Of a stretch of 64,000 bases of DNA, positions 35,732-53,968 are shown piece by piece (position 1 is the first letter of the stretch; each line of letters opens with the position of its first letter). The notes below the pieces were generated by a model, which was not told the origin of the DNA, did not search any database, and saw nothing but the letters and a program-made list of their open reading frames with translations. The stretch is from Candidatus Bathyarchaeia archaeon (GTDB lineage Archaea > Thermoproteota > Bathyarchaeia > 40CM-2-53-6): positions 187,434-251,433 of the forward strand of contig JBEKFP010000003.1 in the NCBI GenBank assembly GCA_050013255.1, given 5' to 3'. Position numbers and translations under genes: made by a program.

Positions 35732-35803
35732 AACTCTTTCAGGGCTTCGGAAGTTGCTTATTCGAGTGTGAGTGCTATGTTGTATCTGAGAGGTGACTAA
35801 TGT

Positions 35804-35920
35804 ATGGCAAAGCAGAGTAGGGGAGCTAAGAAAGCGTGGACGGCTGCTAGAGATAAGAAGGTGTCGAAAGCACGCGAGAAGAAGAAGGAACGAAAAGCCG
35901 CCCTTTCCACGTATCACTAG
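35804..35920 (+). CDS. Small basic protein (38 aa)
   Basis: My translation is MAKQSRGAKKAWTAARDKKVSKAREKKKERKAALSTYH, with GAGGTGA upstream. Below the ORF-track cutoff. Confidence 0.3.
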   Translation: MAKQSRGAKKAWTAARDKKVSKAREKKKERKAALSTYH

Positions 35921-36025
35921 GAACGCTGTTCTGACGTAGCGGGACGCTTGTGAGGATCACGGGAATAGCCTATTCAAGGCAGCAATCATTCCTATCATGG
36001 TGTCTGCTCGTCAAAGGTGACTTGG

Positions 36026-36124
36026 ATGAGAACTTGCCCTAAGTGCGGTCACGAGATAAATGGAAGAGTTTGTGTTGTTAAAGACTGTACTTGTGACTGT
36101 TACTATGGTTTGAAACAACCCTAA
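36026..36124 (+). CDS. Mini zinc-ribbon protein (32 aa)
   Basis: My translation is MRTCPKCGHEINGRVCVVKDCTCDCYYGLKQP, with AGGTGA upstream. Confidence 0.35.
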   Translation: MRTCPKCGHEINGRVCVVKDCTCDCYYGLKQP

Positions 36125-36131
36125 GCCGATG

Positions 36132-36241
36132 AGAATTTTGAACCGTCGATCTCGTGTGTGATTTCATGATTTTGTGATTTTGTCTACGTGTGGGGGGGTA
36201 AGGGTGGTTGGGTCTGGGAGAATGTGTTGTTGTGCGCACCA
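36132..36241 (+). repeat. Composite cassette-junction repeat (type with an ATGATTT-rich module)
   Basis: AATTTTGAACCGTCGATCTC-GTGTGTG-ATTTCATGATTTTGTGATTTTGTCTACGTGTGG-(G/T-rich)-TGTGCGCACCA. By my count, 34 of 41 positions match the repeat at 38524-38564. Confidence 0.75.
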
Positions 36242-36445
36242 TTAGACAATGCCTACTACTCAAAGCCATCCAGGAAAGAGCAACCTGACAATTTGCCGCC
36301 AGAGGAAGAAGGTGAAGCCCAGAAACAATATTGTCACAATTGTAAATGATACATTCATTCGCTTGTATTCAGCCCGCTCACGGAGAAAGCCTCTATGTGA
36401 AATTTTAATTGTACACACAGTAAACGATCATAGGTCTGTGATTTT

Positions 36446-37303
36446 ATGAGTCTTCCGAATTTTCCCGAAAAGATGGAAGGTAGCCTTTTCTTCAGGGAAA
36501 TAATGCCTCAGTTTCTTCCTGAATACAATCCGTTTAAACTTGCTATGCTTGGTTTGATTGTTGAAAAAAAAGGTAAAACCAAGATATATGAAGCATTAAG
36601 GTTTAGTCTTCGTAAGATTCAATGGGTTAAGTTGATGGGCTCAAAAGCCATCCATTTGGAAGAGGAACTACTAAAGGCGGTCGAGCCAAACAGTTTTGTT
36701 TTTGACCCGTTAAGACAAACTGCGCATTCGTTGTGTGTAACCGATTGTCTAATTCATACGAAATCGGCATTAGATTCAATGGCTGTTTTTCTCACTGACT
36801 TGCTTGGATTAGACCAGACGGGTGGAGACAGAGATTTTAAGAAACTTGGATTCAGGGAGTCAGTAAGTCAAAAAGATGCTTTTCTCAAACACGAAATCAA
36901 GAAACTTGAACCTTGGTTCTTAGAATTGCAGGGAGTAAGAGATGAATGGATTCATATCAAGGCAATCGAATCTCTATCTGTTCATGGAAAAAGCGATGTT
37001 GGAATGCTGCCTATTCCGAGAAATATCTACCTTAGTGCTGAAGAACAAAGAAACATACCAATTAATTCAGAGAATTATTGGTCAACAAAAGATTTTGTTG
37101 AACATCATTATGCTCAACTTGCAGAACTATTCGGTGAGATTGTTGACCGTAGTATTCAAATTGAAAACCTGGACTTAGCGGAACCTGTTACTGTTCCTGA
37201 ACACTTTATGAATAATCTGACAATGTTTCCTACACATTCCACCGAGAACATGACTCTCCAAAAAATGAGGGTGTACGTTCCTAAATCTGTGGTCGATTGG
37301 TGA
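36446..37303 (+). CDS. Hypothetical protein with an Rx4H (HEPN-like) motif
   Basis: 285 aa on an AT-rich segment, with the motif GVRDEWIHIKA (R-x4-H). No other recognisable domain. Confidence 0.45.
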   Translation: MSLPNFPEKMEGSLFFREIMPQFLPEYNPFKLAMLGLIVEKKGKTKIYEALRFSLRKIQWVKLMGSKAIHLEEELLKAVEPNSFVFDPLRQTAHSLCVTDCLIHTKSALDSMAVFLTDLLGLDQTGGDRDFKKLGFRESVSQKDAFLKHEIKKLEPWFLELQGVRDEWIHIKAIESLSVHGKSDVGMLPIPRNIYLSAEEQRNIPINSENYWSTKDFVEHHYAQLAELFGEIVDRSIQIENLDLAEPVTVPEHFMNNLTMFPTHSTENMTLQKMRVYVPKSVVDW

Positions 37304-37453
37304 CCTGCAGGAAAACTGATTCTTGGGGAATGGATTGTTGTAAGTCGCACTCACACGATTGAGCCATGGCATCACCCATTGATGCTGAGATTACCTTTTT
37401 CATCGATGAGACCATGGTTGGCTAGAACTATGCTGGGTAAGGTTTTCGTTTCT

Positions 37454-37488
37454 GGGGGGGGTGCGCACCAGCTATAACACGCACACAC
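37454..37488 (-). repeat. Island repeat, inverted orientation
   Basis: GGGGGGGGTGCGCACCAGCTATAACACGCACACAC, which is the reverse complement of GTGTGTGCGTGTTATAGCTGGTGCGCACC. Confidence 0.7.
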
Positions 37489-37625
37489 TTTACTACCGTG
37501 CTGGTCTTGGCTAAGTGTCCCCTAACAACCGCGCTCTCATTTTGGTTTCATTAGCCCTATTTCCACGTAGAACTGGGAATCTTAGATGGTGAGGCTCTAC
37601 TTAATTCGTATACTGACTTGTTTCT

Positions 37626-38489
37626 TTGACGGTGAAACTGGTGAAAACCGCCTACTATTATTTCGCGGTAGAACCGCTGATTGAAAAATACGAAGATGTT
37701 CCCGAAGTAAAGCCTCTGATATCGATACCTGTCAAGACCAAGTCGAAAACATTCGAAGTCTCATTCTTTGCCCTGGGCAACCAACTGCACATGCTTAGGA
37801 TAGCAGTTCCGAACCTGGAAGAGGATAGGATTTCCGAAGAGGATTCGAAGGTCGTTCAGACGCTAAAAGAACATGTTCTCTCGGTGTTACGCATAACTTA
37901 CGACCATGGTGTTAGTTTGTTTCCAATTCATTGGTGGAGCTTCGCTGAGGAAGGAAAGGAATACAGGGCGGGCATTTCAATACGGGAGCAAATAGAGGAA
38001 GCATTCCGCATCAATGCGGGAAACATACGGAACGTTTTCGTGAGTACCTTTCCGCTGAGATATCATATTGCGCTCATATCTGATTCACAGGACAGGAGAA
38101 TCCCATTACAGTACCGATACCTCTCACTTTACAAAATACTCGAACTCGAATTCAAGAAAGGTGGCAGATGGAATCGAATACGTCTCAACGAATTCCTGTC
38201 CAGATTTGAAAAGGAGTTCCAGAAACTTCACAGTGAGAAAATCGAGCTGCGGAATTATCTGCATTCCTTGCGAGACAAATGTGCACACGTTAGGACTGGA
38301 AAGGACATTATTGGCGTCACTCAGCTAAGCGGCAAAGATATCGAAGAGGTTACCAAATTCTTACCTTTCATGGCAGAGTTGTGCTCAACACTCCTAAACG
38401 AGAAATACAAAGACAAAGGATTCTCTATCGTAAAAGGACAACAGTATTCCGAGTTCTTAGCGAAAGGGCAGAACGTACCCATTAACTAA
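37626..38489 (+). CDS. Hypothetical protein with an Rx4H (HEPN-like) motif
   Basis: 287 aa on an AT-rich segment, with the C-terminal motif LHSLRDKCAHVRTG (R-x4-H). Confidence 0.5.
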   Translation: MTVKLVKTAYYYFAVEPLIEKYEDVPEVKPLISIPVKTKSKTFEVSFFALGNQLHMLRIAVPNLEEDRISEEDSKVVQTLKEHVLSVLRITYDHGVSLFPIHWWSFAEEGKEYRAGISIREQIEEAFRINAGNIRNVFVSTFPLRYHIALISDSQDRRIPLQYRYLSLYKILELEFKKGGRWNRIRLNEFLSRFEKEFQKLHSEKIELRNYLHSLRDKCAHVRTGKDIIGVTQLSGKDIEEVTKFLPFMAELCSTLLNEKYKDKGFSIVKGQQYSEFLAKGQNVPIN

Positions 38490-38520
38490 GCTTACCAACG
38501 GAGTCATGGTTGAGAAGGCT

Positions 38521-38656
38521 TTTCGTGTATGATTTTGTAATTTCATGATTTTTTCTACGTGTGGTTGGTTGGTCGTGGTTGGTCATGGTAGTGGTTGTGG
38601 AGCGTAGCAAGGGCGAGCGTAGCGAGGAGGGTGGTTTAGTGGTGCGCACACACACA
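38521..38656 (+). repeat. Composite cassette-junction repeat (paralog of 36132-36241)
   Basis: CGTGTATGATTTTGTAATTTCATGATTTTTTCTACGTGTGG-(GGTTGG-rich; GCGAGCGTAGCGAG)-TAGTGGTGCGCACACACACAG. Confidence 0.75.
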
Positions 38657-38764
38657 GCAAAAAAATGACACACAATTACTAATCTGAGATAATCAATACA
38701 GCTATCAATTCTCAATATGCTTTCATTGATGCTCAGAAAGCAGGCTACAAGTAACACTGGTTTT

Positions 38765-39679
38765 CTATCGTTCGTCTGTCTTAATTCCCGGGAGTTGAAC
38801 AAGGACTACGCCCACAATGACTAAGAGTATTCCCAGAGTCATAACATAGGTGACGCGCTCATCGAGAAAGATCCATGCAAGCACAGCAACCTGCACGAGC
38901 ATACTGTTCTGAATTACTGACAGCTCGTACGCATGGATAGAGCGGAGGACGTGGTTCCAGAGAAGAAAGGCCAAGGCCGTATTGACAACGCCGAGCCACA
39001 ATATTATCAGCAGACCATTCAGAGAAATCGGCCTAAGCCCATCGAATACTGCCGCAAGCAGCACAAGGCCCGCTGTCCCAATTCCCATAGTCAACGTTGT
39101 CAGTTTCAATGACCCAAAGGAGTCAACCCTCTGAATTTTCCTGACTATTATCATGTAAATAGCCCATGAGAGACTCGAAACGATAACGGCTAGGATTCCG
39201 ATTTGCTGTCCCGCGCCCGCCAGTCTCTCCGAGAAGAACGCGTAAGCCCCCAGGAGAGCCACAGGCAAGCCCACCAATTGAAGGCGCGACACTTTTTCTC
39301 TGAGAAGCAGGACCCCCAGCACGAGAACGAAGACCGGCGTAAAGTTGAGCACGAAGGTAGACGTAACTGCTGGGAGATAGAACAAGCCGACGAACTGGAG
39401 ACCCTGAGCAAGAGTGTAGCCACATATCCCTGCCGCGACGAGGAGTACTTTCCCATTCGCCACAGTCGTGCTCTTTCGACCACTCTTCTCAGTCCCCACA
39501 CGTGCGACATACAACATTCCCAAAACGACGAACGCAAGCGTGTAGCGCTCAGCAGCGAAAAGAAAAAGAGGAATTTCAAGCAAACCAAACTTGATTAGAA
39601 CATACGACGATGACCACAAGAAAGTTACCAGAATCGCTTCAGCGTATGCTAGTAGTGGATTCGATTTCGTGAACGGCAC
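38765..39679 (-). CDS. EamA/DMT-family transporter (second copy in the window)
   Basis: 304 aa with 10 TM helices and duplicated EamA halves. Confidence 0.85.
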   Translation of the reverse strand: MPFTKSNPLLAYAEAILVTFLWSSSYVLIKFGLLEIPLFLFAAERYTLAFVVLGMLYVARVGTEKSGRKSTTVANGKVLLVAAGICGYTLAQGLQFVGLFYLPAVTSTFVLNFTPVFVLVLGVLLLREKVSRLQLVGLPVALLGAYAFFSERLAGAGQQIGILAVIVSSLSWAIYMIIVRKIQRVDSFGSLKLTTLTMGIGTAGLVLLAAVFDGLRPISLNGLLIILWLGVVNTALAFLLWNHVLRSIHAYELSVIQNSMLVQVAVLAWIFLDERVTYVMTLGILLVIVGVVLVQLPGIKTDER

Positions 39680-39784
39680 CGCCAGTCACACACTATCATA
39701 ATTAATCTTTCATCTTGCTGCATACTATTCAGTTGCTTCTCACGTTCGTTCAAGCCCCCACAAGGTGCACTGATAACTTATGGA

Positions 39785-39813
39785 GTTGTGTGTGTGACTG
39801 CGCTGGTGCGCAC
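39785..39813 (+). repeat. Island repeat (solo end-like unit)
   Basis: GTTGTGTGTGTGACTGCGCTGGTGCGCAC, followed by the 7-bp inverted repeat GAGTCCA..TGGACTC and an ATATATATTTA box upstream of the methyltransferase gene. Confidence 0.7.
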
Positions 39814-39876
39814 ATATGAGTCCAGTCCTCGTGGACTCAATATATATTTACAGAAGAGACTCAACTCTGTGATGCT

Positions 39877-40593
39877 ATGAAGACTAACATAATCGCATAC
39901 TACAGGAAACATGATCCCTTCTCTAGATATCTAACAACCGACAAGCGAAGGGTGAAACAGATTTATGGGCTTTACACTTCAAACAAACGCCACTTTGGAC
40001 GCAGAGTCTTAGATATTGCGTGTGGAGGCGGAGTCTTAGGCTTCATAGTGGAGAGAGAGGGTCGCTCATACACTGGCGTTGACGTTAATCCTGACATGAT
40101 TTCGTCGGCCAGAACTCATGCAAAGGAGGTCGGGTCAAGAAACCGGTTCATCGAAGGAGATGTAACCCAAATGAAAATCGAAGGAAAATTTGACACCATA
40201 TGCATTCTGGGCAATGCATTATGTCACTTCTCAACGCACGATTTCTCAAGGATCCTTCAGAACACTGCCGCATGTAGCGAAAGAGGCGCTTACTTCATAG
40301 TAGATTATCGAGATATGGTGCGCCTAATGTTTCACAAAAAGTGGAATATCAAGAAAAGGCTTGTACAGAAAGAACGGGGAAGAATCAGCACGACAGAGGG
40401 TTGTGACACAAGAACCGGGTTCGTTCTAGTAACGACTACAGACCTGCGTGGAAAGAGCGAAGTCGGATTCGCTCATGCCATATGGTCGCCATTCATTATC
40501 ACACCCATCATGAATAATCATGGCTGGTCCATGGTAAAGAGAACATTCTCGAAGAGATTGTCTGAATGGCTCGATATCTACCGAAGAACCTAG
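39877..40593 (+). CDS. Class-I SAM-dependent methyltransferase
   Basis: 238 aa with motif I VLDIACGGGVLG and GVDVNPDM. Confidence 0.8.
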   Translation: MKTNIIAYYRKHDPFSRYLTTDKRRVKQIYGLYTSNKRHFGRRVLDIACGGGVLGFIVEREGRSYTGVDVNPDMISSARTHAKEVGSRNRFIEGDVTQMKIEGKFDTICILGNALCHFSTHDFSRILQNTAACSERGAYFIVDYRDMVRLMFHKKWNIKKRLVQKERGRISTTEGCDTRTGFVLVTTTDLRGKSEVGFAHAIWSPFIITPIMNNHGWSMVKRTFSKRLSEWLDIYRRT

Positions 40594-40622
40594 TTGCCAA
40601 AAACGATGAACCGATATTTCTC

Positions 40623-40835
40623 GTGTGTGTGGGTATGCTGGTGCGCCGCCCCCGCCGCCGCCTAGATTAACTTTGTGGTTGGAACGACGGTAGGAACCGA
40701 ACGACGACGGTAGGATTGGAGACGACGGAACGAGTACGACGACGCTAATACGAACGACGGTAGGAACGACGACGACACGCCGATGTTCTATGTTTTATAG
40801 GAATTGAAACACGTGGAAGCAACAGCACAGCTAAA
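40623..40835 (+). repeat. Left terminal inverted repeat (modular)
   Basis: GTGTGTGTGGGTATGCTGGTGCGCCGCCCCCGCCGCCGCC, then a spacer, then three copies of GAACGACGGTAGGA(A) (40682-40780), then AT-rich GATGTTCTATGTTTTATAGGAAT. Confidence 0.75.
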
Positions 40836-40845
40836 CTCGCACAAA

Positions 40846-41358
40846 CTAAAATCGCAGAAGGCTTGCAAGGTATTGAGCAACGGCGAATAGGAAGACGAGA
40901 ACTACGCCTAGCAAGAATGTCAATAGCGCTTGATAGATTCTTGACTGAGATTGCGCCTTGAGTTTCTTCGGGAGACCCGTCACATCTGCGACTAGGTACG
41001 CTAGGAGGTAGAGAGGCGGGAATATCAAAAAGAGCGACGCCGCCTTGAGATGTGCGAGAGCGACAGTCAAAAATATCGTCACCACATATCCTCCTAATTC
41101 TATCGTCATGAGAAACAGCCCCGCTCTAAATATCCAGCAACTTGATGAAACGTTGCCCCTCTCACCCTTTGGGGGATAATCCAATGTTTCCCACAACAAC
41201 AAAACTGCGAGTGCAAAGCTTGTAATTGAAACCAGCTGAACAATTATTTGGTTACCGAAGTGGGCGAGGACTGCTGAAATGCCGCCGAATACACCAAACG
41301 CTTCTAGAAGTTTATCATTAGCTTCAACAAAATCTCGCAGGCTCTTCCTTTGCTCCAA
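40846..41358 (-). CDS. Hypothetical membrane protein (about 4 TM)
   Basis: 170-aa ORF with four hydrophobic segments. It is the last gene of the leftward gene string in the element. Confidence 0.5.
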   Translation of the reverse strand: MEQRKSLRDFVEANDKLLEAFGVFGGISAVLAHFGNQIIVQLVSITSFALAVLLLWETLDYPPKGERGNVSSSCWIFRAGLFLMTIELGGYVVTIFLTVALAHLKAASLFLIFPPLYLLAYLVADVTGLPKKLKAQSQSRIYQALLTFLLGVVLVFLFAVAQYLASLLRF

Positions 41359-41474
41359 ATCTTGACGCTCACCAACCTTCGGGATTCGTTATCCACATCG
41401 AAGGGATTGCACGAAGGAACTACTTAATCCGTATTCTTGGCCCTTTATTCTTATCATGCCAGTATGCGTTGACG

Positions 41475-42209
41475 TTAGAAATGTTGTTCCGATGGTTCGG
41501 GGCAAAGATGGTGGAGCAATTGGACAACGGTCTTGATCGCTCGTCTGCAATCAGATTCGATGACGCTTTTTTCTGTGACTTTTCCGTTCGCAATCATTGG
41601 CATTAGGCCTCTGGTCAAGGCCTTCGCATACTTGTCATAATTGCCTGTGTGCAAGGAAGGATTTCTAATTCTTGAAAGCCAGAGCAAGTCGATTTTCTCT
41701 CTCTTCGTCAACGTCCCTTCGCTGGCGAGCCTTCTGACCAACCGCCAATACTGCGCTTCGGAGCCTTTCGCTTTACGCCGGATAACAGATTCGACTACAG
41801 CTTGACACATGATAATTGTTGCGTAGTGTGCGCCGTTCATATAGCACGCCCCAACCTCCGGCAAAAGCAGACTCGTGAGAACGGGGATCCTCCACATTTC
41901 GTGAGGAAATTGTTTTCTCAGCCAGCGTGCTCTTCTCTCTTGCTCCAATTCAAGTAACCGATCCCGTTCATCAAGATCGTCGGCATAGGGCCGCAATACT
42001 CCAGAAAAAGCGAAGGCGTCTGCCCCAGTCCAGTCATAAGGCCCGCTTGCCCATTCTTCAATGATCTGTTTTCGGCGGTGGAGCAGCGTCTTCGTTCTAT
42101 TCTTCAATGACCGTTGAACCTCTACACAGGATACCTGTAGAGTTTGTTTTGGCGGATTACGTAGATTCCTAGATTTTCCTTGGGTATGTGTACCTTGAAG
42201 AAGTACCAT
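41475..42209 (-). CDS. Hypothetical protein with an RNxxxH (HEPN-like) motif
   Basis: 244-aa ORF with WLSRIRNPSLHTGNYD, which contains R-N-x3-H. The 5' end overlaps the upstream ORF by ~88 nt, so the true start is uncertain. Confidence 0.45.
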   Translation of the reverse strand: MVLLQGTHTQGKSRNLRNPPKQTLQVSCVEVQRSLKNRTKTLLHRRKQIIEEWASGPYDWTGADAFAFSGVLRPYADDLDERDRLLELEQERRARWLRKQFPHEMWRIPVLTSLLLPEVGACYMNGAHYATIIMCQAVVESVIRRKAKGSEAQYWRLVRRLASEGTLTKREKIDLLWLSRIRNPSLHTGNYDKYAKALTRGLMPMIANGKVTEKSVIESDCRRAIKTVVQLLHHLCPEPSEQHF

Positions 42210-42580
42210 ATGCGCTGTCTTTCACGCCGTGTCCAGGGCGACGCCTTGAAAACTTCCACACGCTTGTAATCCCACTTACCCGTTTTCCTGTTCCTTGTTG
42301 TTCCGAAGCATAACTCTCTGTAAATGAATCCTTGTTCTCTCAGCTTCCTTTTGACCAAGGCGAGTTTTTCCCTCAGCCTCTTTGAGACGGGTAAATCTTC
42401 AGTTCTAGTTGTCTTATTGTATTTGAGGTACCATCTCTTCAGATCGGCTTCTTCGAAGACTGACTTCGCAACCCGCCGTATCGTGCCGTGTTCGTTTCTA
42501 AGCACTAGAACCCTGATAGTACGGCCTTTCACGTGGCGCTCTTCATATTGTAAGCGCCAGACCTTGAGCTTAGGAATCAA
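42122..42580 (-). CDS. Hypothetical basic protein
   Basis: 152-aa ORF in the same leftward string. No recognisable motif. Confidence 0.4.
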   Translation of the reverse strand: MIPKLKVWRLQYEERHVKGRTIRVLVLRNEHGTIRRVAKSVFEEADLKRWYLKYNKTTRTEDLPVSKRLREKLALVKRKLREQGFIYRELCFGTTRNRKTGKWDYKRVEVFKASPWTRRERQRIWYFFKVHIPKENLGIYVIRQNKLYRYPV

Positions 42581-42633
42581 CGCTCAAAACCCGTAAACAC
42601 AGACGACGATAAGGGCGCTGAGAACCGTCTATG

Positions 42634-42954
42634 CTAACTGAGTTTCCTACGTGGATGCGATAAACGATATTTCCTGTCGCTCTCACGTCTTTCCGCACGA
42701 TGTGCTTCCCGATATTTTCTATCACTCTCTCGTCTTTCGGCACGGTGTGCTTCTCTATATTTCCTATCACTCTCACGTCCTTCTTTACGGCGCGCTTTTC
42801 GGTACTTCTCGTCCCTCTCATGTATTTCCGTGCGGTGTCCGTCCCGATATTTTCTATGTTCCTCAAGTCTTTCCGCACGGTGCGTTTCTCTATATCTCCT
42901 ATCGTTTTCTCTTGCCTTTTCAGGATGAAGAGACCGCCAACTTCTCCTTTTCAT
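42634..42954 (-). CDS. Highly charged protein made of 15-aa tandem repeats (RKYREAHRAERRESD-like)
   Basis: It starts 13 nt after the HNH stop on the same strand and is encoded by the 45-bp DNA repeats. The repeat (H/N)PEKARE..RRYRE resembles repeats seen N-terminal to some HNH proteins. Because of the repeats all frames are open, so frame choice is by context only. Confidence 0.4.
   Translation of the reverse strand: MKRRSWRSLHPEKARENDRRYRETHRAERLEEHRKYRDGHRTEIHERDEKYRKARRKEGRESDRKYREAHRAERRESDRKYREAHRAERRESDRKYRLSHPRRKLS
42650..42935. repeat. Tandem repeat, 45-bp period, about 6 copies
   Basis: The anchor motif CGATAT/CTATAT recurs at 42665, 42710, 42755, (42800), 42845 and 42890, exactly 45 nt apart. 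Confidence 0.85.
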
Positions 42955-42966
42955 CTAATGCCACGT

Positions 42967-43464
42967 TCAGTGTTTTTCCTCGTGTTTCCAAGTTCTATAC
43001 TTCAATATGGAAATAATCGCACCTCGGCTGACGCCGTATTCTTTGGCGAGGGTCCCAAAGCCGACTCCAGCTTTATGGTCTCTCGCATATCTCGCCCGAA
43101 TTTCGACAACTTGATTCCGAGTTAGCTTATGTGCGGGCGAGTCTTCTCCTCTGAGACCTCTGGAACGGCCCTTTCTCGCCCTGTCTTCGGCGTTCTCCTT
43201 GAGTGTTCCGACAGACAAGTGCGCCGGATTTACGCAAGCACGGTTATCGCAATGATGCAAAACACACTTTCCTTCGGGTATGCGTCCATATTCGAATTCC
43301 CAAGCAACTCGGTGAGCCATAGGCGTATGTCCGCGGTAATGGAATCGGCCATATCCATCTTGGTTCTTGACACCCATCCAAATCCAACAACCATTATCCT
43401 CTTTGCGGACTTTTTCCCAAAAGCGCTCCTTGACAGATGATACCCTCCTTGGCATGATTCTCAC
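42967..43464 (-). CDS. HNH endonuclease with a C-terminal HTH-like domain
   Basis: 165 aa. GCWIW.G..N.DGYGRF...G....AHRVAWEF..G.IP.G..VLHHCDN..CVNP.HL is an HNH_3-type pattern. Confidence 0.85.
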   Translation of the reverse strand: MRIMPRRVSSVKERFWEKVRKEDNGCWIWMGVKNQDGYGRFHYRGHTPMAHRVAWEFEYGRIPEGKCVLHHCDNRACVNPAHLSVGTLKENAEDRARKGRSRGLRGEDSPAHKLTRNQVVEIRARYARDHKAGVGFGTLAKEYGVSRGAIISILKYRTWKHEEKH

Positions 43465-43513
43465 ATGTCCAACATTGCGTCTCTAATCATGCTAGGAACA
43501 ACTTGCCAATCAA

Positions 43514-43648
43514 TCAATTCTTCAGCCAGAGTTTGATAGCTTCCTCTAACGCTTTGATTACTGCACCTTTCTGACCGCCATACTTCTCCACGGCTTTCAG
43601 CCTGAACTTCTTCTCTAGCTCTTTGTCAATCTTGCCATACACTACCAA
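43514..43648 (-). CDS. Ribbon-helix-helix (CopG/Arc-like) small DNA-binding protein (44 aa)
   Basis: Below the ORF-track cutoff. My translation from TTG is LVVYGKIDKELEKKFRLKAVEKYGGQKGAVIKALEEAIKLWLKN, a strand-helix-helix pattern. It lies directly upstream of the HNH gene on the same strand. Confidence 0.5.
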   Translation of the reverse strand: MVVYGKIDKELEKKFRLKAVEKYGGQKGAVIKALEEAIKLWLKN

Positions 43649-43671
43649 ACCGTAATCCGCTCAACTTGCTA

Positions 43672-43716
43672 TCTAGATAACAAGCCTTATACGTTTTAGC
43701 TTGTGGTCTAGATAAC
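43672..43716. promoter_or_regulatory. Direct repeat TCTAGATAAC x2 in the divergent RHH-HNH / cas1 control region
   Basis: TCTAGATAAC at 43672-43681 and 43707-43716, 35 bp apart. Each contains the palindrome TCTAGA and lies 30-75 nt upstream of the cas1 ATG. Confidence 0.3.
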
Positions 43717-43745
43717 TTGCGATATAGCATTTCGAGGTTTGAGGC

Positions 43746-44960
43746 ATGAACCCGTTACATCTCGGCGGTTTCGGCGTCGAAATTCAAGCAAGCAACCCAA
43801 AGCCACACGCCGAACTCATGATTACGAATGGACGGCGAAGCGAAAGCCTACCAGAACGCTACCTCTTTCTGCCAAGAAAAATAGTATACGATTCAATCAT
43901 ACTCGAAAACTGTACTGGACATGTTTCACTTTCAGCCTTACGCTGGTTGAGCAAACACAACATTCCAATCTTCTTCTTAAACTTCGACGGCTCAACCATC
44001 AGCAGCATTCTACCACCAACACCAGTTAAAGCGGATTTACGTGCCGCACAATTTCAAGCCGCCAACGACCCTGAAAAGAAGTTCAGAATCGCCCACGCGC
44101 TGGTAGAAGCGAAGATCGCTAGGAGCATACAGGTTCTAGACTGGTTAGCTCAGCGTTACGACATACAAAGAGAAGTACAAGTCACAAACGGCGAAGCTGT
44201 CAAGCTAGGCGAAGCCTCCACGGTCAATCAACTACGCACCGTTGAGGGCAGAACGGCGCTTCGATATTGGGAAGCATTCCGCAAAACTCTGCCTGAATCT
44301 CTACATTTCGAGGGACGCATGACCACAAGCCACAACAACAACGCCTCCGACCCATTCAACGCGGCGCTGAACTATGGCTATGGATACCTGAAAATTATGT
44401 GCAGAACGGCGATTAACTCTGTGGGACTAGAGCCCGCCGTAGGCTTCCTGCATGAACTCAGCTCCACTCAAACAGCAGAAAGCCTAGTCTATGACTTGGA
44501 GGAACCATTCAGATGGCTCATAGACCTCTGTGTGATTCAAGCGTTCGAAACCGGCAGCCTAGGCTTGGCAGACTTCGCTTTCACCAAAGACAATTACGAA
44601 TATCGAATTGAGTGGGAAGGTAAGACACGGCTCCGTCAATTGCTGACGGAGACATTCAATTCAAGAGTAAGGTATGGCGGGCAAGTGTTGAAGTGGGACA
44701 CCGTAATCGAACAGAAAACCTTGGAACTCAGCCGATACTTGACGGGAAAGGCGCCCACGTTGGACTTCAATGAACCCGCACCGACGTTAGAAAGACAGGA
44801 TAACCGAGAAGTCAGAGAAAACATTCTGGCCCTAACACAGTCTGAGGCTAGGCAACGTGGGATTGGGAAGAGTACGCTTCACTATCTACACAAGAACGCA
44901 CATGAGCGCAGTTCTTTTAGACTCTATGAGCCTGTAAGACGAAAGCTGTTGGGCGGTTAA
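43746..44960 (+). CDS. cas1: Cas1-family integrase, solo (casposase-like, with a C-terminal HTH-like extension)
   Basis: 404 aa. Cas1 hallmarks TVEGRTALRYWEAF (Glu), NAALNYGYGYL, VGFLHEL (His) and LVYDLEEPFRWLID (acidic). The extra tail is ...LTQSEARQRGIGKSTLHYLHKN. GAGGT lies upstream of the ATG. No cas2 or CRISPR is nearby. Confidence 0.85.
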   Translation: MNPLHLGGFGVEIQASNPKPHAELMITNGRRSESLPERYLFLPRKIVYDSIILENCTGHVSLSALRWLSKHNIPIFFLNFDGSTISSILPPTPVKADLRAAQFQAANDPEKKFRIAHALVEAKIARSIQVLDWLAQRYDIQREVQVTNGEAVKLGEASTVNQLRTVEGRTALRYWEAFRKTLPESLHFEGRMTTSHNNNASDPFNAALNYGYGYLKIMCRTAINSVGLEPAVGFLHELSSTQTAESLVYDLEEPFRWLIDLCVIQAFETGSLGLADFAFTKDNYEYRIEWEGKTRLRQLLTETFNSRVRYGGQVLKWDTVIEQKTLELSRYLTGKAPTLDFNEPAPTLERQDNREVRENILALTQSEARQRGIGKSTLHYLHKNAHERSSFRLYEPVRRKLLGG

Positions 44961-44961
44961 T

Positions 44962-45726
44962 TTGAAAGAAGTTTTCCTAAGCCACGCGCACGAAGACAAG
45001 GCACTAGCCGGAAAAGTAAAAGAGATTCTCGAAGCGAACGGGGTAAGTGCGTTCTTGGCTCATATGGACATGGAAGTCTCGGAAGAGTGGAGAACTGAAA
45101 TATCCCGACACCTTGAGACAAGTTCAGCCCTAATCGCTATCGTGACGTCGAATTTCGGCAAATCAGCCTGGGCAAACCAAGAAGTTGGAATAGCCTTCGA
45201 GAAGAAATTACCGCTAATTCCGTTGATGTTCGACGGAAGCGCGGTTCTGAAGGGTGTGATCGAAATGTATCAGGGAATCCTTGTTTCCGAAAATAATCTA
45301 GTAGATGTGGTAAAGAGCACTATTCCGACAATAAACAAGGGAATCCCTTCAACCGAGAGAAAATTCTACGATGCCCTAGCAGGCATCCTAAATCGTTTGA
45401 TACTAAGGTGGCAGACTTACAAGAGCCACCTATCAAACATAAAATGGACTCAAGAAGCTATTGAAGAGATTAAGAAGAATCTTCGCAGCGATAGAGAGGA
45501 ACTTCTCAATTTGGTCTCCAATGCGCCAGAAATCGATTTCGGCGTCAAAAATCAGACCACAGTTATCATGAGTCAAATTGACGTATTCGCACTCTTCAAA
45601 ATCAATTTCAACAAGCCCTATGCTGAGACTTACGGCGAATTCCAAGAATTAGAGCATAAAGGAGAACAGGTATCTTACACTGCTCAAGCCTTACGCGGTT
45701 GGTTGCAAACCGAGAAACTCTCCTAG
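44962..45726 (+). CDS. TIR-domain protein with an uncharacterised C-terminal domain
   Basis: 254 aa. A TTG start lies 1 nt after the cas1 stop. The N-terminus VFLSHAHEDKALAGKVKEILEANGVSAFL...IVTSNFGKSAWANQEVG matches the TIR pattern (FLSH..D ... S.W...E). Confidence 0.7.
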   Translation: MKEVFLSHAHEDKALAGKVKEILEANGVSAFLAHMDMEVSEEWRTEISRHLETSSALIAIVTSNFGKSAWANQEVGIAFEKKLPLIPLMFDGSAVLKGVIEMYQGILVSENNLVDVVKSTIPTINKGIPSTERKFYDALAGILNRLILRWQTYKSHLSNIKWTQEAIEEIKKNLRSDREELLNLVSNAPEIDFGVKNQTTVIMSQIDVFALFKINFNKPYAETYGEFQELEHKGEQVSYTAQALRGWLQTEKLS

Positions 45727-45928
45727 CTAGAATGACTCTGAAGTCGTTTCTCACTTTCGACACGCGCGATTCTTGTCTCAGTGGAGGCGTGGTATAGCTG
45801 ATGCGCCAACAACCTTTCAGGATTTACTCGAACGTGAAAGAGAAAATGAGTAATCCGCCCCTTGGGCAGCTGTGATTGAATCGTATACTATACATAAGCC
45901 TAGGCTAGTCTAACGTTTAGCAGAAATG

Positions 45929-46435
45929 TCATAATGCAACCTTCTTCTTCGGCTTACTATGCGGTTTGTATGGCGGTGGGGCTCCAGCATTTCGGCGAGC
46001 TTTTCGCATGTTCCACTGTCTGAATCTTCTCTTTCGGGCCTGAATGATCTTGTTCCTAAACTCGTTACTGTACCAACGTAACAACAGATCAGAGGGCGGC
46101 GCTTCTTCACCGTAAGGCTTTGCGCTTAGTTCATGGGCGGCGGCTATTTTCGCATAAATTTCTTCATCAAGAGGAAAATATGCGTAGTGCACTCCACCAT
46201 GATACATGATTTTCAACTGCCGACTAGAGAGGTTGTACGTTAAATCGAAATGCGGGGTTTGCGACAGTCTACTGAGCGTAACGCAATCTCTATTTTTCTT
46301 TCTTCTCTTGTCCAACCCTAGTGTTTCGACTTCTCCCGCAATCTTGAAAATTGGTTTACCTGTTTCGTTGTCTAATTCAATTTTCACTTGCTGTTTGCGT
46401 GAACCTTTGAGGCCGGTAGCCCTGATGTAACCCAT
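45929..46435 (-). CDS. Hypothetical basic protein
   Basis: 168-aa ORF with a Lys/Arg-rich C-terminus. No recognisable motif. Confidence 0.4.
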   Translation of the reverse strand: MGYIRATGLKGSRKQQVKIELDNETGKPIFKIAGEVETLGLDKRRKKNRDCVTLSRLSQTPHFDLTYNLSSRQLKIMYHGGVHYAYFPLDEEIYAKIAAAHELSAKPYGEEAPPSDLLLRWYSNEFRNKIIQARKRRFRQWNMRKARRNAGAPPPYKPHSKPKKKVAL

Positions 46436-46964
46436 GGACTACGCTCTCTTGCACTTCTTGAGTCTGAACTCGAAAGTGTACTTCGACGGGTTCCTGTCGA
46501 TTTTCTTGGCTATGATCTCGGGAACTAGAGTACGGAATTCAATGAGACGGCTTTCACGGCATGTCAGCGTTGACGTCTCCGCTTGCTGAAGAAGAAGAAC
46601 AGCCGTGTTACAACTGAAGAAGAAGAAGAATTATGGCGAAATGAAGAAGAAACTTCTGTATTCAACTCTAATCGCCTTTTCCTCTTATTTGCGGAGCTCT
46701 TTACCTGAAAGAAGCTCGAAATAACCTTAGTTTTGAACTGTATAAAAAGTCTACTGTCCCGCAGTCAGACGACAATACAACACTCGGTGATCGCAAACCT
46801 GAGGAAGCAGACCGAGAATAGTCTTGACCCAGCTCCCTCAGGGGAAATGGCGATTCCAGGTCTATTATTGTCTGCGAGTGGTAAATAAATCTACTTATTT
46901 TTGAGTAATAGGTTCGGTGCCACCCCTTCTTGAGCACGTATTAAGGGGAGCGATTTACCCAAAA

Positions 46965-47297
46965 ATGAGTAATTCTAAAATACCTGCGAGCGGGATACGA
47001 TGGCTGAGTATCCCTATGACCGTTCCCCAGGTCGTTCCATCAGACCTACTCTCAAGGAAGGAGCGCGAAGCACCCACAGACACTAAGCAGAGGATAAGCT
47101 TCAGGGAACTTGCGGAGCGTCGGATCATCACTAAAGGCCTCAACGGAGCGGCCGCCTGGTTGAGGGCTAAGGTAGGAGTTTTCCCAATCGATATCGAGAT
47201 GCAGCAGTGTGGCGATGTCTACGAAATGGTTGTAAAAGTAACATATCGCCCTTTACCACCAATGCCTGAGGTCGTGTATGAACGTCAGGAATCATAA
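46965..47297 (+). CDS. Hypothetical protein
   Basis: Internal Met (MSNSKIPASG) of ORF 46917..47297. No recognisable motif. Confidence 0.3.
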   Translation: MSNSKIPASGIRWLSIPMTVPQVVPSDLLSRKEREAPTDTKQRISFRELAERRIITKGLNGAAAWLRAKVGVFPIDIEMQQCGDVYEMVVKVTYRPLPPMPEVVYERQES

Positions 47298-47480
47298 CAA
47301 CAGAACGAAGAACGACTCGGCGCCATAGTTATGTGAATCCGATGATATCAAATCGAGGCTCAATTCTAACCAACGCTGGCAACAAGTCGATGAGTTCTCT
47401 CTCACTGTTCCAAAACGATTCGGCCCAACTCTCATTAGTTCCCCATCTACAATTCTAAAGAGGCCTTACAGGCGGTTCCC

Positions 47481-47966
47481 ATGTCAGTGAACGTCACGGA
47501 ATCGAGTCTTGATCTCAACACACTCTTGAGCAAACTCGGGTATCAACCCGACCAAATAGGTTCGTTATTGGGTGCTGACGTCCTGATGTTCCCGAAAGAC
47601 TTGGAATCTGCCGAGTCATCGTTTGATGACAAATCAGTATCCATTAAGAAGACCATTGAGAAGCAGCTTCGAATTGAGGTGCTGACCAAGCAGGGCGCTA
47701 AGTCTCATTACGAAGCTCAAAGAGCCGCAGACATCCTTGTCCCTGCATTAGTCTTCTTAGGGGTGCAAACTTTTGATATCGGTAAGGGAATAATCACCAG
47801 CTGGGTTTATGATAGGTATCTCCAGCTACGCAACCGAGGTCTGACACCAAGTGTAGCATTGAAGTTCGTTGTGATTGATAAGAAGAAAGGGATTAGGAAG
47901 GAAGTAAGCTACGAAGGACCGGCCGAGCAATTGCAAGACACTTTGAAGAATCTCAAACTGGATTGA
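47481..47966 (+). CDS. Hypothetical protein (one hydrophobic segment)
   Basis: 161-aa ORF. Its stop overlaps the start of the next ORF, suggesting translational coupling. Confidence 0.45.
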   Translation: MSVNVTESSLDLNTLLSKLGYQPDQIGSLLGADVLMFPKDLESAESSFDDKSVSIKKTIEKQLRIEVLTKQGAKSHYEAQRAADILVPALVFLGVQTFDIGKGIITSWVYDRYLQLRNRGLTPSVALKFVVIDKKKGIRKEVSYEGPAEQLQDTLKNLKLD

Positions 47967-48760
47967 AGTTGCCTAGACTCTCGTCTCTAAGACCCGTTCG
48001 ACCGCGAACCATCACCGTGCTTTCACCGGAGCAGAGGGAAATTCTTGAGAAAGGATTGTCTAACGAGGAAAATGGACACCTTGGTAAAGCTGCTAGTCTG
48101 TTCCAGTCCCTTTATGAACAGATGCAGAGTGCCAACTCTGAAGTCTCGCAAGACTCAGCGTGTATGAAAGCGAACGCTGACTTAGTATTAGCCAGACTGG
48201 AAATCACCCGCAATCGAGACGAAGCGGAGAAACTGTTCAGAAGCACGATATCGGCTCTAGAAGTTGCGCTAAAGATCGATCCGTACTGGGCGGATTATTT
48301 CAATTTACGAGGGAAAATCGTGGCCTACCTGCATACTGATTTCGGCTGCAAGATAGTTCGTAATAGAGGAGTTTGGGAAATCAAATGTATCGATGTATCT
48401 AACGCACTACGAATCCCAGGGATAAGTAGAAGCGAGACTTTTGATCTTGAGTGCTCAATCTGTAAGAAGGACCCAATGTTTTGTCCGCATGTTTCGGGGG
48501 AAGTCTACGATGGCCGCCTAGCTCTAGGCATAGTAAGACATTTGGAAATCAAAGAACTTTCAATAATTACGCCGCCACATGTTCCCGAAGAGCGTACAAT
48601 CGGAATATGGCCTCGACCCTTAACCGACGGCGATATCAGGAAGCTCTATTCGGAGAAGACTGCAAGGCAGATAATAGATTCAGGAGTGATTCGTTGCAAG
48701 GATCTCGTTAGAATAATTCGTAAGAACAATCTGGGCGGTGTGGAATGGGTGCAACATTGA
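47963..48760 (+). CDS. Hypothetical protein with a Cys cluster
   Basis: 265-aa ORF with a TTG start overlapping the upstream stop. Contains CSICKKDPMFCPH. Confidence 0.45.
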   Translation: MKLPRLSSLRPVRPRTITVLSPEQREILEKGLSNEENGHLGKAASLFQSLYEQMQSANSEVSQDSACMKANADLVLARLEITRNRDEAEKLFRSTISALEVALKIDPYWADYFNLRGKIVAYLHTDFGCKIVRNRGVWEIKCIDVSNALRIPGISRSETFDLECSICKKDPMFCPHVSGEVYDGRLALGIVRHLEIKELSIITPPHVPEERTIGIWPRPLTDGDIRKLYSEKTARQIIDSGVIRCKDLVRIIRKNNLGGVEWVQH

Positions 48761-48860
48761 CGAGCAAACAACAACTCAAGGATTGCAGAGTTAGGCATCT
48801 ACCGGAAGAAAGCCCACGCTCTTGGCACTGTCTAAATGCAATCCTCTCGCAATGTACCAA

Positions 48861-49445
48861 TCAGCTTCTTCTGAGTTTCTTATCATATGTGAAATGTTTC
48901 TGAATCAGCGCTCTTGTCAGAAACTCTATGTCCTCATCTTGAGGCAGGAAATCTGATGTTGCTTCGACTATCTTCCCTATGTTTCCCCTTTTGTAAAGGG
49001 CCATTCCCAGAGACATGTGACGGCCAAAGATTCTCGCCAAGAGTTCTTTCTTCCCCCAGAGTAACTGTCTAAATTCCTCTATCTTTCGGTCGTCTGGGAT
49101 ATTTTGATGAAACCCTAGAATCAGGTTCGTCCGTTGAACTCCATTCTTCAGATAAAGAAGGGCCTCGCCAATTCCTTTGTAGAACGCATCCCAGCCCAAT
49201 GACTTACTTCGTTCATCAAACTTGATCAATTTCATTTCATAGCCGTTCAGTCGGTATTGGTTCTGTGAAATCTTGTAGAATTCCAGGGCGTCAATGTCTG
49301 GATTAATCCTCCTTCCTGCTATGGCCGAGACCTTGGGGTACGCTCCATATGGCAAGACAGACTTTAGCAATTCGTCTTCGGAAACAAATCGATCATACGT
49401 CATGGCGTGTGTCATTCGAGAGGCCTTGTGATTGGGCTGGTCCAT
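48861..49445 (-). CDS. Hypothetical protein
   Basis: 194-aa ORF adjacent to the right TIR. No recognisable motif. Confidence 0.4.
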   Translation of the reverse strand: MDQPNHKASRMTHAMTYDRFVSEDELLKSVLPYGAYPKVSAIAGRRINPDIDALEFYKISQNQYRLNGYEMKLIKFDERSKSLGWDAFYKGIGEALLYLKNGVQRTNLILGFHQNIPDDRKIEEFRQLLWGKKELLARIFGRHMSLGMALYKRGNIGKIVEATSDFLPQDEDIEFLTRALIQKHFTYDKKLRRS

Positions 49446-49540
49446 AGGTTTAGTCTACCTGACCAGCGGATTATTCTTTCTGATTTTGATGTTCTGGTAG
49501 TGTTATGTCCGAGCTTAACTACTCACGCGGATGGTTCATC

Positions 49541-49711
49541 ATGTGGTCCTTCATGTTTTATGATTCATAAGAAATCAGGTTCTTATCCTACTCCTGCCGT
49601 TCCTACTCCTACCGTACCGAACAGGTTCCTGCCGTCATTCCTACCCTTCGTGTTGTCACAATCCTAATATTAGCGGCGGCGGGGGCGGCGCACCAACGAT
49701 ACCACACACAC
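49541..49711 (-). repeat. Right terminal inverted repeat (modular)
   Basis: Read inward from 49711 on the minus strand: GTGTGTGTGGTATCGTTGGTGCGCCGCCCCCGCCGCCGC, then a spacer, then ACGG(C/T)AGGA-type short repeats, then the AT-rich near-palindrome (plus strand TCATGTTTTATGATTCATAAGAAATCAGG at 49551-49579). Confidence 0.75.
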
Positions 49712-51467: not shown

Positions 51468-51646
51468 GCGTCATGTTTTATGATTCATAGAACATCAGGC
51501 TACCGCCACTAAGAGAATGTTGTGCGAGCGAAGCGAGCACCAAGCTAACCAAGTAAGCGAGCGAAGTGATCTTCAACAGGTTCCAACTTCGGGCGGCGGC
51601 GGCGGGGGCGGGTATGCTGGTGCGGGCGAGCGGATTTGAACTCTCG
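51468..51646. repeat. Second copy of right-end-type modules fused to a tRNA-3'-end-like unit
   Basis: TCATGTTTTATGATTCATAGAACATCAGG (51471-51499; the first 19 nt are identical to 49551-49569); GCGAGCGAAGCGAG-type module; GGCGGCGGCGGCGGGGGCGG; then GGGTATGCTGGTGCG (51610-51624) and GGCGAGCGGATTTGAAC. Confidence 0.7.
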
Positions 51647-51659
51647 TTTGGGGGAGAGC

Positions 51660-51680
51660 TTGGTGCGGCCGCCGGGATTC
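51660..51680 (-). repeat. Duplicate of the 3' end of tRNA-Gly (att-like direct repeat)
   Basis: TTGGTGCGGCCGCCGGGATTC is identical to 53873-53893, the 3' acceptor/T-arm of the intact tRNA on the minus strand. Confidence 0.85.
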
Positions 51681-51691
51681 AGGTCAGCCTT

Positions 51692-52633
51692 TCAGGGCTC
51701 GGGATAGGTGTATGACGGGTAGATCCTTAGCGGTGTTCCAGGTTTTATGACGGCTTGGGCTTCAGCGTTTAGCAGGTAGCGCCCAGCAGGATCAGCGCTG
51801 CCCGCCTCCGCAAAAAGCTTGACAACGAAAGGTTTCGATTCGGCCCGCCGGTAGAAAATCTGAGCCTCATTCGGGCGTGTTCTAACGTACCTCCTCCAAA
51901 GCTGCTCGATGGGCTCAGTTCGCGCAAATGACCTGTCCATGAATTCGAAGAACCTTGCTAACTCCGATCTTCGGGGAAACCGACCGTAATGCTGCGAAAG
52001 TTCCTCATATGCTCCAAGGAAGTATTCCTGTAATGAGGCAAACCGCCGGTCCCTTAGGTACCCTTTGAAGAGCTCGATAAACTCTTGGAGCAGTCGATTT
52101 ATGCGTTTATCGACTTGCCCGTGATTCGGTTGCGCTACGGGTAACTTGTCGGGCACGATTTCCCTTACCAAACCAAGTTTTCCGTTACCGGAAATTGCTA
52201 GGCCAGCTTTGCTTACCGTTCCATGAATCTCGCGTATCGCCTCGACCATGAGATGGTTCTCATACATCTCGATTTCGAGAGCATGATCCTGCCTGAAGAT
52301 TTCCGCCATTCTTTCCCACACAACCTCGTAACGTTTTCTCCGCATATCCAAACCAATTCCGGGGCGATCTCTCAACAGCCCCGCCTTTCGGAGGTCCGAA
52401 AGTTGCAGACTCACGGCGAACTTCGATTTACCCGTAAACGCTGATATTTCAGAAGGCGAGTTCGTACCCTTTGCCACTGCGACGAAGAGCTCACTCAGAG
52501 CTTGAGAACGAAGCGCCTTCCGGACGCGTCTAATCTCGCCGCGCAACGGGTCGCCGGAATCAACTTTAACCTCCATTGCAACGCGCCTTCCCCACAGCTG
52601 CCGTGCAAGAACCGTTGGTTTTGTTTTTGGCAT
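51692..52633 (-). CDS. Winged-helix (ArsR-like) domain protein
   Basis: 313 aa. The N-terminal SPSEISAFTGKSKFAVSLQLSDLRKAGLL looks like HTH plus wing. The rest is uncharacterised. Confidence 0.5.
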   Translation of the reverse strand: MPKTKPTVLARQLWGRRVAMEVKVDSGDPLRGEIRRVRKALRSQALSELFVAVAKGTNSPSEISAFTGKSKFAVSLQLSDLRKAGLLRDRPGIGLDMRRKRYEVVWERMAEIFRQDHALEIEMYENHLMVEAIREIHGTVSKAGLAISGNGKLGLVREIVPDKLPVAQPNHGQVDKRINRLLQEFIELFKGYLRDRRFASLQEYFLGAYEELSQHYGRFPRRSELARFFEFMDRSFARTEPIEQLWRRYVRTRPNEAQIFYRRAESKPFVVKLFAEAGSADPAGRYLLNAEAQAVIKPGTPLRIYPSYTYPEP

Positions 52634-53702: not shown

Positions 53703-53873
53703 CTGAGAAAGCAGGCGTACTAGCGCCAGTTTTCTCGGCACCCAACCTTTTCTTGGCTGTAGCAATTCTTGGCTAGCAATATTGTAGCCGCCTTCAAGCT
53801 GTGGATTTGCCTCAACTGGTTTTGTCCCCAATATTCGCATTGATGAAGCGATAAGGTATCGTTGCAGAGAGTT

Positions 53874-53968
53874 TGGTGCGGCCGCCGGGATTCGGACCCG
53901 GGTCGTTGGCTTGGAAGGCCAATGGACGCGTAAACGCAATGTCCTAGACCAGGCTAGACTACGGCCGC
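53874..53968 (-). tRNA. tRNA-Gly (anticodon UCC) with a 17-nt non-canonical intron between the D-arm and anticodon stem; CCA encoded
   Basis: Reverse complement: GCGGCCG-TA-GTCT-AGCCTGGTCTA-GGAC-A-[TTGCGTTTACGCGTCCA]-TTGGC-CTTCCAA-GCCAA-CGAC-CCGGG-TCCGAAT-CCCGG-CGGCCGC-A-CCA. All four stems pair once the bracketed 17 nt are removed. Confidence 0.85.

Follow-up and report, generated by a model that had tools for sequence, protein, structure and literature searches.

Can a casposon do without a DNA polymerase of its own? The question is raised by a locus in a 64,000-nucleotide stretch of DNA from a Candidatus Bathyarchaeia archaeon (contig JBEKFP010000003.1; the whole stretch is called the window below), in which a solo Cas1 gene lies between inverted repeats at 40623-49711. 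Casposons are defined, and were named, as self-synthesizing transposons. We read the region as a Bathyarchaeia casposon that is family-2-like in its integrase and its target and that encodes no DNA polymerase, and we give this reading a probability of about 80%. An earlier note on this DNA had called the element casposon-derived, with a casposase-type Cas1, terminal inverted repeats (TIRs) and an HNH gene and without a family-B DNA polymerase (PolB); our results support that view, amending it as to the boundaries and target-site duplication (TSD), the target, and the precedent of the 'family 5' casposases. In reviews, PolB figures as an invariable component of casposons (PMC6452270, PMC9966878). 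The founding casposon screen required cas1 and polB together (PMC4046053), and PolB-less elements like these would therefore have been missed.

To judge from its matches, the 404-aa Cas1 homologue is a casposase and not a CRISPR Cas1. Its best solved relative is 6OPM (8.4e-77, 37% identity, query residues 4-395 against chain residues 21-405), the family-2 casposase of Methanosarcina mazei (PMC6977970), and CRISPR Cas1 structures score 2e-22 or weaker, covering the catalytic part only. Family-2 casposases have an extra C-terminal helix-turn-helix (HTH) that is essential for integration (PMC6977970). The alignment with 6OPM through residue 395, together with the Pfam match (PF01867, 1e-52), upholds the earlier description of a 404-aa Cas1 with catalytic contexts and an HTH-like tail. 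Residues E167, H236, D250 and E253 do not vary among 46 relatives and, from their motif contexts (VEGR, FLHE and YDLEEPFR), would be the catalytic positions. Because only 99 of 1.84 billion clusters at 50% identity match the protein at E <= 1e-30, it belongs to a small and distinct family; the window holds one copy.

Relatives of the element were found by an alignment-based metagenome scan. We fetched 80 of its 321 matches, together with several contigs from an exact protein look-up, and obtained 76 non-redundant Bathyarchaeia loci on metagenome contigs, spanning 55-80% Cas1 identity and reaching at most 10 kb to each side of cas1 (~20 kb per relative); individual loci are cited by L numbers. 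The named Cas1 relatives come from metagenome-assembled genomes of Candidatus Bathyarchaeia or Bathyarchaeota. A single-protein scan of genome contigs gave one locus only, on the same contig as L005, and IMG/VR held no relatives of the element. A literature search returned no paper connecting casposons with Bathyarchaeia elements of this kind.

To look for a polymerase, we translated the window and all loci in six frames and screened each segment of 60 aa or more by phmmer, with E. coli Pol II and phi29 polymerase as queries, and by scans for three PolB motifs. Neither the element nor the 64-kb window contains a PolB, and among the 76 related loci there was one hit only (L043, 3549-6158). That hit is a genuine PolB (PF00136, 2.6e-49), which we rejected as a casposon polymerase: it must be a host gene, because its neighbours are housekeeping genes (for RsmB, arginase, F420-ligase and OMP-decarboxylase) and between it and cas1 lies an element junction (9075-9088). 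When the open reading frames (ORFs) of the element were profiled against Pfam, PADLOC, PHROGs and NCBIfam, no polymerase or primase was found, and Cas1, HNH and a Toll/interleukin-receptor (TIR) domain were the only domains recognised. The longest ORF in 40623-49711 is Cas1 itself, as the earlier note had stated in denying the element a PolB, and the unassigned ORFs are all too short for a family-B polymerase; the check that the note had proposed for these ORFs yielded no PolB-like match by profile or motif. Because the whole lineage is PolB-less and has intact TSDs, the absence is a property of the lineage and not a one-off decay. The 64 kb contain no CRISPR-like array, which had also been claimed from the sequence, and the Pfam labels of the called genes at ~34-56 kb include no other cas family, no whole-window profile search for cas2 having been made.

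The ends of the element are inverted copies of each other, as first proposed. An inverted-repeat search pairs 40623-40677 with 49657-49711 over 55 nt (80% complementary), and a 22-nt core, GGTGCGCCGCCCCCGCCGCCGC, is exact at 40640-40661 (plus strand) and 49673-49694 (minus strand), whereas none of 100 shuffles gave a match. When the two 218-nt ends are aligned locally, the score is 71, compared with 17.3 +/- 2.5 for dinucleotide shuffles (z = 21), which places the real ends far above the shuffled controls that the note had called for. Both ends also have the same inward order of modules that it had described, namely a GC core, a spacer, ACGG(T/C)AGGA or ACGACGG repeats and an AT-rich near-palindrome. 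TIRs are likewise seen in relatives L005, L008, L017, L047 and L060, and in this lineage the TIR tips are simple-sequence runs of the form (CCG)n, (CA)n or Cn.

The limits of the element have to be redrawn. The inverted ends at 40623 and 49711 stand, but the outermost 23 nt of each, which consist of GTGTGTGTG and a CGCA-type 14-mer, are, judging from the relatives, junction and target sequence, and the element proper would run from 40646 (the CCGCC core) to 49688. Like the earlier note, we had at first counted GTGTGTGTGG-N6-TGGTGCG as part of the TIR; we set this aside, since the relatives show the 14-mer as an exact direct repeat adjoining the GC core. Nor is the right end an outer limit: 49688 falls within a TSD-bounded insertion, which extends to a third TIR copy ending at 51610. 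We call the left, right and third copies c1, c2 and c3 (Table 1). The subterminal repeats are shared by c1 and c2 and differ in c3; the AT-rich palindrome of c3 lies ~110 nt inward of its core, at the same offset as in c2, and is identical to that of c2 at 29/30 nt.

Where these ends are inserted is best seen in the relatives, in which exact 14-nt direct repeats abut the GC-rich core at the termini (for example GGTCTAATGGTGCG in L008, GGTCAGCTGGTGCG in L005 and GGTCTAGTGGTGCG in L060). On the opposite strand these 14-mers have the form CGCACCA-N7, with GTTCAAAT-N6-GCY ahead of them on one side. The geometry of this leader and CGCACCA matches that from the T-loop of a tRNA to its encoded CCA, which would make the target a tRNA-3'-end-like site. 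The non-redundant loci contain 425 CGCA[CT]CA-N7 sites, for which the chance identity is 0.011; of the 14-mer pairs that span cas1, 18/285 are identical in direct orientation and 1/265 in inverted orientation. In 15 related loci (L005, L008, L014, L035, L038, L048, L057, L059, L060, L061, L063, L067, L072 and L073 among them), identical pairs delimit PolB-less units measuring 3.4-14 kb.

In the window the corresponding 14-mer, T1, occurs three times in direct orientation (51611-51624, 40632-40645 and 35014-35027), each time with the expected type of junction. The earlier note had found no clean TSD next to the TIRs. This was right for its own right end and wrong for the locus as a whole, the TSD being the identity of 40632-40645 with 51611-51624. 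On the tRNA strand the order is leader, T1, a Cas1 unit (51610-40646), T1, a Cas1-less unit (40631-35028) and T1. The Cas1 unit measures 10,965 bp and contains the 9.1-kb element (c1-c2) as its inner part plus a TPR gene, so that its interior reads, on the tRNA strand, c3, TPR gene, (GT)n, inverted T2, c2, cas1, c1. T2 is a different 14-mer of the CGCA type, and with its (CA)n run at 49689-49711 it marks where the inner element formerly had its distal junction. The 5.6-kb Cas1-less unit looks casposon-type and inserted in tandem, possibly mobilised in trans. G+C content is low across 36-50 kb, including 36-40 kb in the Cas1-less unit.

A real tRNA gene stands near the element only in the window, among the loci examined. 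It is 95 nt long (53874-53968), is reported by ARAGORN as tRNA-??? and scores 48 bits with Rfam; by eye it looks to have an anticodon arm of the Gly(UCC) type and an insertion at a non-canonical position. Its 3' end is copied, over 27 nt and with 1 mismatch, at ~51654-51680, a direct repeat of 53867-53893 just upstream of the junction. All five leader plus CGCACCA sites of the window are on the tRNA strand. Because the leader sites share this strand and the copied tRNA end lies at the junction, 34-54 kb is a tRNA-anchored array of insertions and remnants. The 27-nt repeats enclose 2.2 kb with genes for an ArsR-like HTH protein (51692-52633) and two SRPBCC/AHSA1 proteins, and this segment may be another element integrated at the same tRNA. 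In 51 relatives ARAGORN found no intact tRNA at the element junctions, and their targets are therefore mostly degenerate sequences resembling tRNA 3' ends. A flank of the form GGTTCAAAT...CCA had been a candidate for a real tRNA gene, which we rejected on the negative ARAGORN result in those 51 loci and on its unpaired T-stem.

Another form in which leader and 14-mer occur is as doublets of a ~62-nt unit, made up of the leader GTTCAAAT-N6-GCY, CGCACCA-N7, (CA)n and a short spacer. Two such doublets are on the minus strand of the window (34023-34120 and 34855-34968), and others are in L019 (177-264), L073 (14200-14286) and L076 (4893-4976). The loci contain 46 adjacent pairs, with identical 14-mers in 3. 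They resemble tiny leader/repeat arrays or solo-TIR remnants.

The additional 1.9 kb of the Cas1 unit, with the TPR gene and c3, could have been acquired in two ways. Transposition may have used c1 and the downstream c3, skipping c2 and taking the TPR gene along; alternatively, an element may have entered an inverted internal target of another element, with a later deletion between the two right-hand TIRs. End-skipping and nested insertion with deletion would fit the data alike. We also considered an inversion by recombination between element copies as the source of the inverted 14-mers at c1 and c2, and dropped it as unneeded because the third TIR and the triplicated T1 account for them. L007, whose contig does not reach the left boundary, has a TPR orthologue (79% nucleotide identity) next to Cas1, on the inner side of the right-end junction; this would agree with a TPR gene that moves along with the element. 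The TPR genes beside many loci fell into one cluster; much of this similarity is of the generic TPR kind, and close orthologues are confined to L007 and L013.

If the polymerase-free casposon reading holds, integration would proceed as follows. The casposase would bind the TIRs through the simple-sequence GC core and the subterminal ACGG(T/C)AGGA repeats, and would insert the two ends, at positions 14 bp from each other, into a target that consists of the leader (GTTCAAAT-N6-GCY) and CGCACCA-N7, giving the 14-bp duplication. Gap repair and any copying would be left to host enzymes, a reliance that we infer because the element has no polymerase; the HNH nuclease may also have a role. Movement is probably cut-and-paste-like, because precise excision and reintegration in vivo have been shown for a mini-casposon in M. 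mazei (PMC10359463). The slot 3' of cas1 would hold exchangeable cargo, mostly of defence type (a TIR-domain protein in the window). Comparison of the sequences shows mobility for the family, through TSDs at many sites and differing cargo, and not for the window copy.

Several points tell against this reading. Neither an empty site nor a second location of the exact element was found, all contigs with the exact flanking methyltransferase or TPR protein carrying the element, and recent mobility of the window copy is therefore unproven. No TSD belongs to the c1/c2 pair itself, and T1 is the second commonest 14-mer (19/425 sites), which puts the chance of coincidence at ~4-5% for each pairwise identity. 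The family-2-like placement comes from match scores, TSD and target. The polymerase searches reach ~20 kb around each relative, and a PolB-encoding helper may exist elsewhere in the genomes. Eight ORFs of the element have no assigned function, and the model of the 244-aa ORF is of low confidence.

Other accounts draw on some of these points. The element could be an ordinary family-2 casposon in decay, its polB deleted and the remnant now immobile. Fixation of the window copy in all sampled contigs, the lack of a TSD around c1/c2 and the disruption of the HNH gene in some variants would suit such a history, and inactive casposons with fragmented genes are known (PMC4779613). We nevertheless consider it unlikely, given that 0/76 related loci (55-80% Cas1 identity) have an element-borne PolB, that many relatives show exact TSDs at different sites with sizes down to 3.4-5.2 kb, and that Cas1 is intact at 404 aa with its catalytic-type residues invariant. 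Somewhat less probable again is that the elements are non-autonomous passengers, with a casposase of their own and replication by way of a PolB-encoding casposon elsewhere in the genome. The Cas1-less unit at 35028-40631 with the same TSD can be taken as a sign of trans-mobilisation, and the search covered only ~20 kb around each relative; yet no PolB-bearing relative occurs among the 321 metagenome matches (80 read) or in the 64-kb window, and the closest known PolB-bearing casposase, that of M. mazei, is only 37% identical. Very hard to credit is a domesticated Cas1-solo locus, in which Cas1 and the TIR-domain effector would form a host defence or signalling module that is no longer a transposon. 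It is true that the two genes are 1 nt apart, that defence-type genes follow cas1 in many relatives and that the locus is fixed in the population, but the inverted repeats, subterminal repeats and TSDs are kept throughout the family, with different cargo in different copies. Varied cargo between kept ends therefore points to a mobile element with cargo and not to one conserved operon.

How then does this polymerase-free casposon compare with known systems? The closest are the family-2 casposons MetMaz-C1 of M. mazei and AciBoo-C1 of Aciduliprofundum boonei, which share with it a casposase that ends in an HTH, the TIRs, an HNH gene (frequent in family 2 without being universal), a 14-bp CGCA TSD, insertion at a tRNA 3' end or a tRNA-like intergenic site that needs an upstream leader, tandem copies on one TSD, solo TIR remnants, and cargo of the TPR, pentapeptide and HEPN type. 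In M. mazei, family-2 casposons were described with 14-bp TSDs that have an invariant 5' CGCA, targets at tRNA 3' ends or in intergenic sites, tandem copies with a common TSD, and solo TIRs (PMC4779613). The Bathyarchaeia elements differ in their hosts and in having no PolB in any copy, whereas the described families 1-4 all encode one; their TIR tips are simple-sequence, their targets are mostly degenerate copies of tRNA 3' ends and not intact tRNA genes, and their units are as small as 3.4-5.2 kb. The lineage integrates like a family-2 casposon and is not 'self-synthesizing'.

The idea of a casposon without a polymerase is not entirely new, since 'family 5' casposases from hot springs were proposed in 2022 to belong to non-self-replicative transposons, on the basis of solo Cas1 genes that mostly lack PolB and of which some have TIRs (PMC9755687). 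That family reportedly has no HTH at its C-terminus and branches beside subtype I-A Cas1, and it was described with no analysis of TSDs or targets (PMC9755687). By this description the Bathyarchaeia protein is set apart from it, having an HTH region and a family-2 casposase as its nearest relative. What differs from family 5 is the family-2-like protein, TSD and target, the dozens of TSD-bounded copies and the defence-type cargo. With the CRISPR adaptation module the elements share a Cas1-fold integrase and leader-adjacent integration that duplicates a short sequence of fixed length, and Bathyarchaeia genomes contain short arrays of leader-like sequence and 14-mer; unlike that module they have no array and no effector genes, match CRISPR Cas1 with far lower scores, and integrate as multi-gene elements bounded by TIRs.

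A family-2-like lineage of which about 75 copies were sampled, with clean 14-bp duplications and without a polymerase, means that transposition by a casposase is separable from self-replication in nature. Such a lineage agrees with the proposal that CRISPR adaptation arose from a casposon after loss of its polymerase. Its defined TIR cores and defined target of leader and 14-mer also make it a compact system for biochemical work, and it suggests that casposons carry defence genes in a major group of uncultured archaea. We advance more tentatively, at slightly worse than even odds, the broader claim that Bathyarchaeia host a large and currently active polymerase-free casposon lineage, for which the casposase, TIRs with simple-sequence tips and the leader/14-bp target suffice, and whose members act as shuttles for defence genes, capture flanking host genes by end-skipping, mobilise Cas1-less units in trans and leave behind arrays resembling a leader plus repeats. 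If true, this lineage would be the closest living analogue of the postulated polymerase-less casposon ancestor of the CRISPR adaptation module.

Table 1. Coordinates of the casposon, its junctions and neighbouring features in the window
Feature	Position	Strand	Details
Cas1-less tandem unit	35028-40631	-	(CA)n/(GT)n tips; methyltransferase, EamA and MauJ-like genes; ends at T1 35014-35027, preceded by (GT)n
TSD copy T1 (CGCACCAGCATACC, minus strand)	40632-40645	-	followed outward by (CA)n run 40623-40631; identical to 51611-51624 and 35014-35027
Left TIR (c1)	40646-40809	+	core CCGCCCCCGCCGCCGCC 40646-40662; ACGACGG(TAGGA) subterminal repeats 40684-40776; AT-rich near-palindrome ~40783-40805
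170-aa ORF	40846-41358	-	hydrophobic; no family match
244-aa ORF	41475-42209	-	predicted all-helical, AlphaFold2 (AF2) pLDDT 53; invariant R182-N-P-x-L-H187
152-aa ORF	42122-42580	-	kept in related elements (identity 50% in L008, 42% in L011, 39% in L047)
HNH endonuclease, 165 aa	42967-43464	-	PF13392 (HNH_3) 2.4e-15; PHROG HNH families down to 3e-37
Casposase, 404-aa Cas1 homologue with C-terminal HTH region	43746-44960	+	PF01867 1e-52; 6OPM 8.4e-77
TIR-domain (Toll/interleukin-receptor type) protein, 254 aa	44962-45726	+	PF13676 3e-19; PADLOC ThsB-like 1e-10
93-aa ORF	47016-47297	+	conserved above Cas1 among relatives: 84% to L002, 78% to L047
265-aa ORF	47963-48760	+	N-terminal TPR-like helical domain and Cys/His-rich beta domain; AF2 pLDDT 82
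Right TIR of the 9.1-kb element (c2), now internal	49551-49688	-	core 49673-49688; ACGG(T/C)AGGA repeats; AT-rich palindrome 49551-49580
T2 (CGCACCAACGATAC, a different CGCA-type 14-mer) and (CA)n	49689-49711	+	then remnant of a (CA)n-tipped end (TTTTCAAACGAACG)
TPR protein, 487 aa	49779-51242	-	between c2 and c3, inside the TSD-bounded unit; Pfam TPR families
Third TIR copy (c3)	51471-51610	-	core CGCCCCCGCCGCCGCCGCC 51610-51592; subterminal repeats of CTTCGCTCGC type
TSD copy T1 and leader	51611-51641	-	T1 51611-51624; tRNA-3'-end-like leader GTTCAAATCCGCTCGCC 51625-51641
tRNA gene	53874-53968	-	3' end ..CGGCGGCCGCACCA|AACTCTC, the target prototype

The TIR-domain gene begins 1 nt past the stop codon of cas1, in the variable cargo slot, and its product matches NCBIfam Thoeris and retron TIR families below their cut-offs. 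In relatives the large ORFs just 3' of cas1 encode TIR-domain, AIPR, DUF4365, NERD, TPR/AAA_16, type-IIG-like methylase and pentapeptide-repeat proteins; the slot varies among relatives and looks defence-related. Cargo of the TIR-domain, HEPN-like, AIPR, NERD and restriction types probably benefits the host or stabilises the element. The 244-aa ORF has eleven homologues only, and its R-N-P-x-L-H motif may be a HEPN-like Rx4H motif. The 265-aa ORF gave weak TPR matches to the PDB with Foldseek (E >= 0.07), its predicted structure showing no polymerase fold, and sequence searches of the PDB with the unassigned ORFs of the element returned no matches. The HNH gene predicted in the earlier note is present (PF13392, 2.4e-15); the ribbon-helix-helix gene predicted beside it is not, no such domain appearing in any ORF profiled. 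In some near-identical population variants the HNH gene is split or frameshifted (L087 9091-9564, L091 7565-7876), with cas1 and the TIR-domain gene intact.

Some smaller features were also seen. A perfect 19-nt inverted repeat, with arms in the 5' part of cas1 (43881-43899) and just past the TIR-domain gene (45873-45891), encloses most of the cas1-cargo operon. At 42654-42878 the element contains five 45-nt units in tandem (67-78% identity to the reference copy); ORFs on either strand overlap them, such as a 106-aa repeat ORF rich in Arg, Lys and Glu. Distant relatives with (CA)n tips and 55-62% Cas1 identity (L014, L017, L020, L034, L035, L038 and others) have a conserved block of 5-6 small to medium-sized genes upstream of cas1 on the opposite strand, which is absent from the window element; its genes occur in 14-41 loci each and have essentially no Pfam or PHROG matches. 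Larger relatives encode a 318-aa protein (L067 5957-6910 and seven other loci) with weak AAA+ (AAA_16, ORC/CDC6-like) and winged-helix matches, which might be a replication-initiator-like or TniB-like accessory factor.

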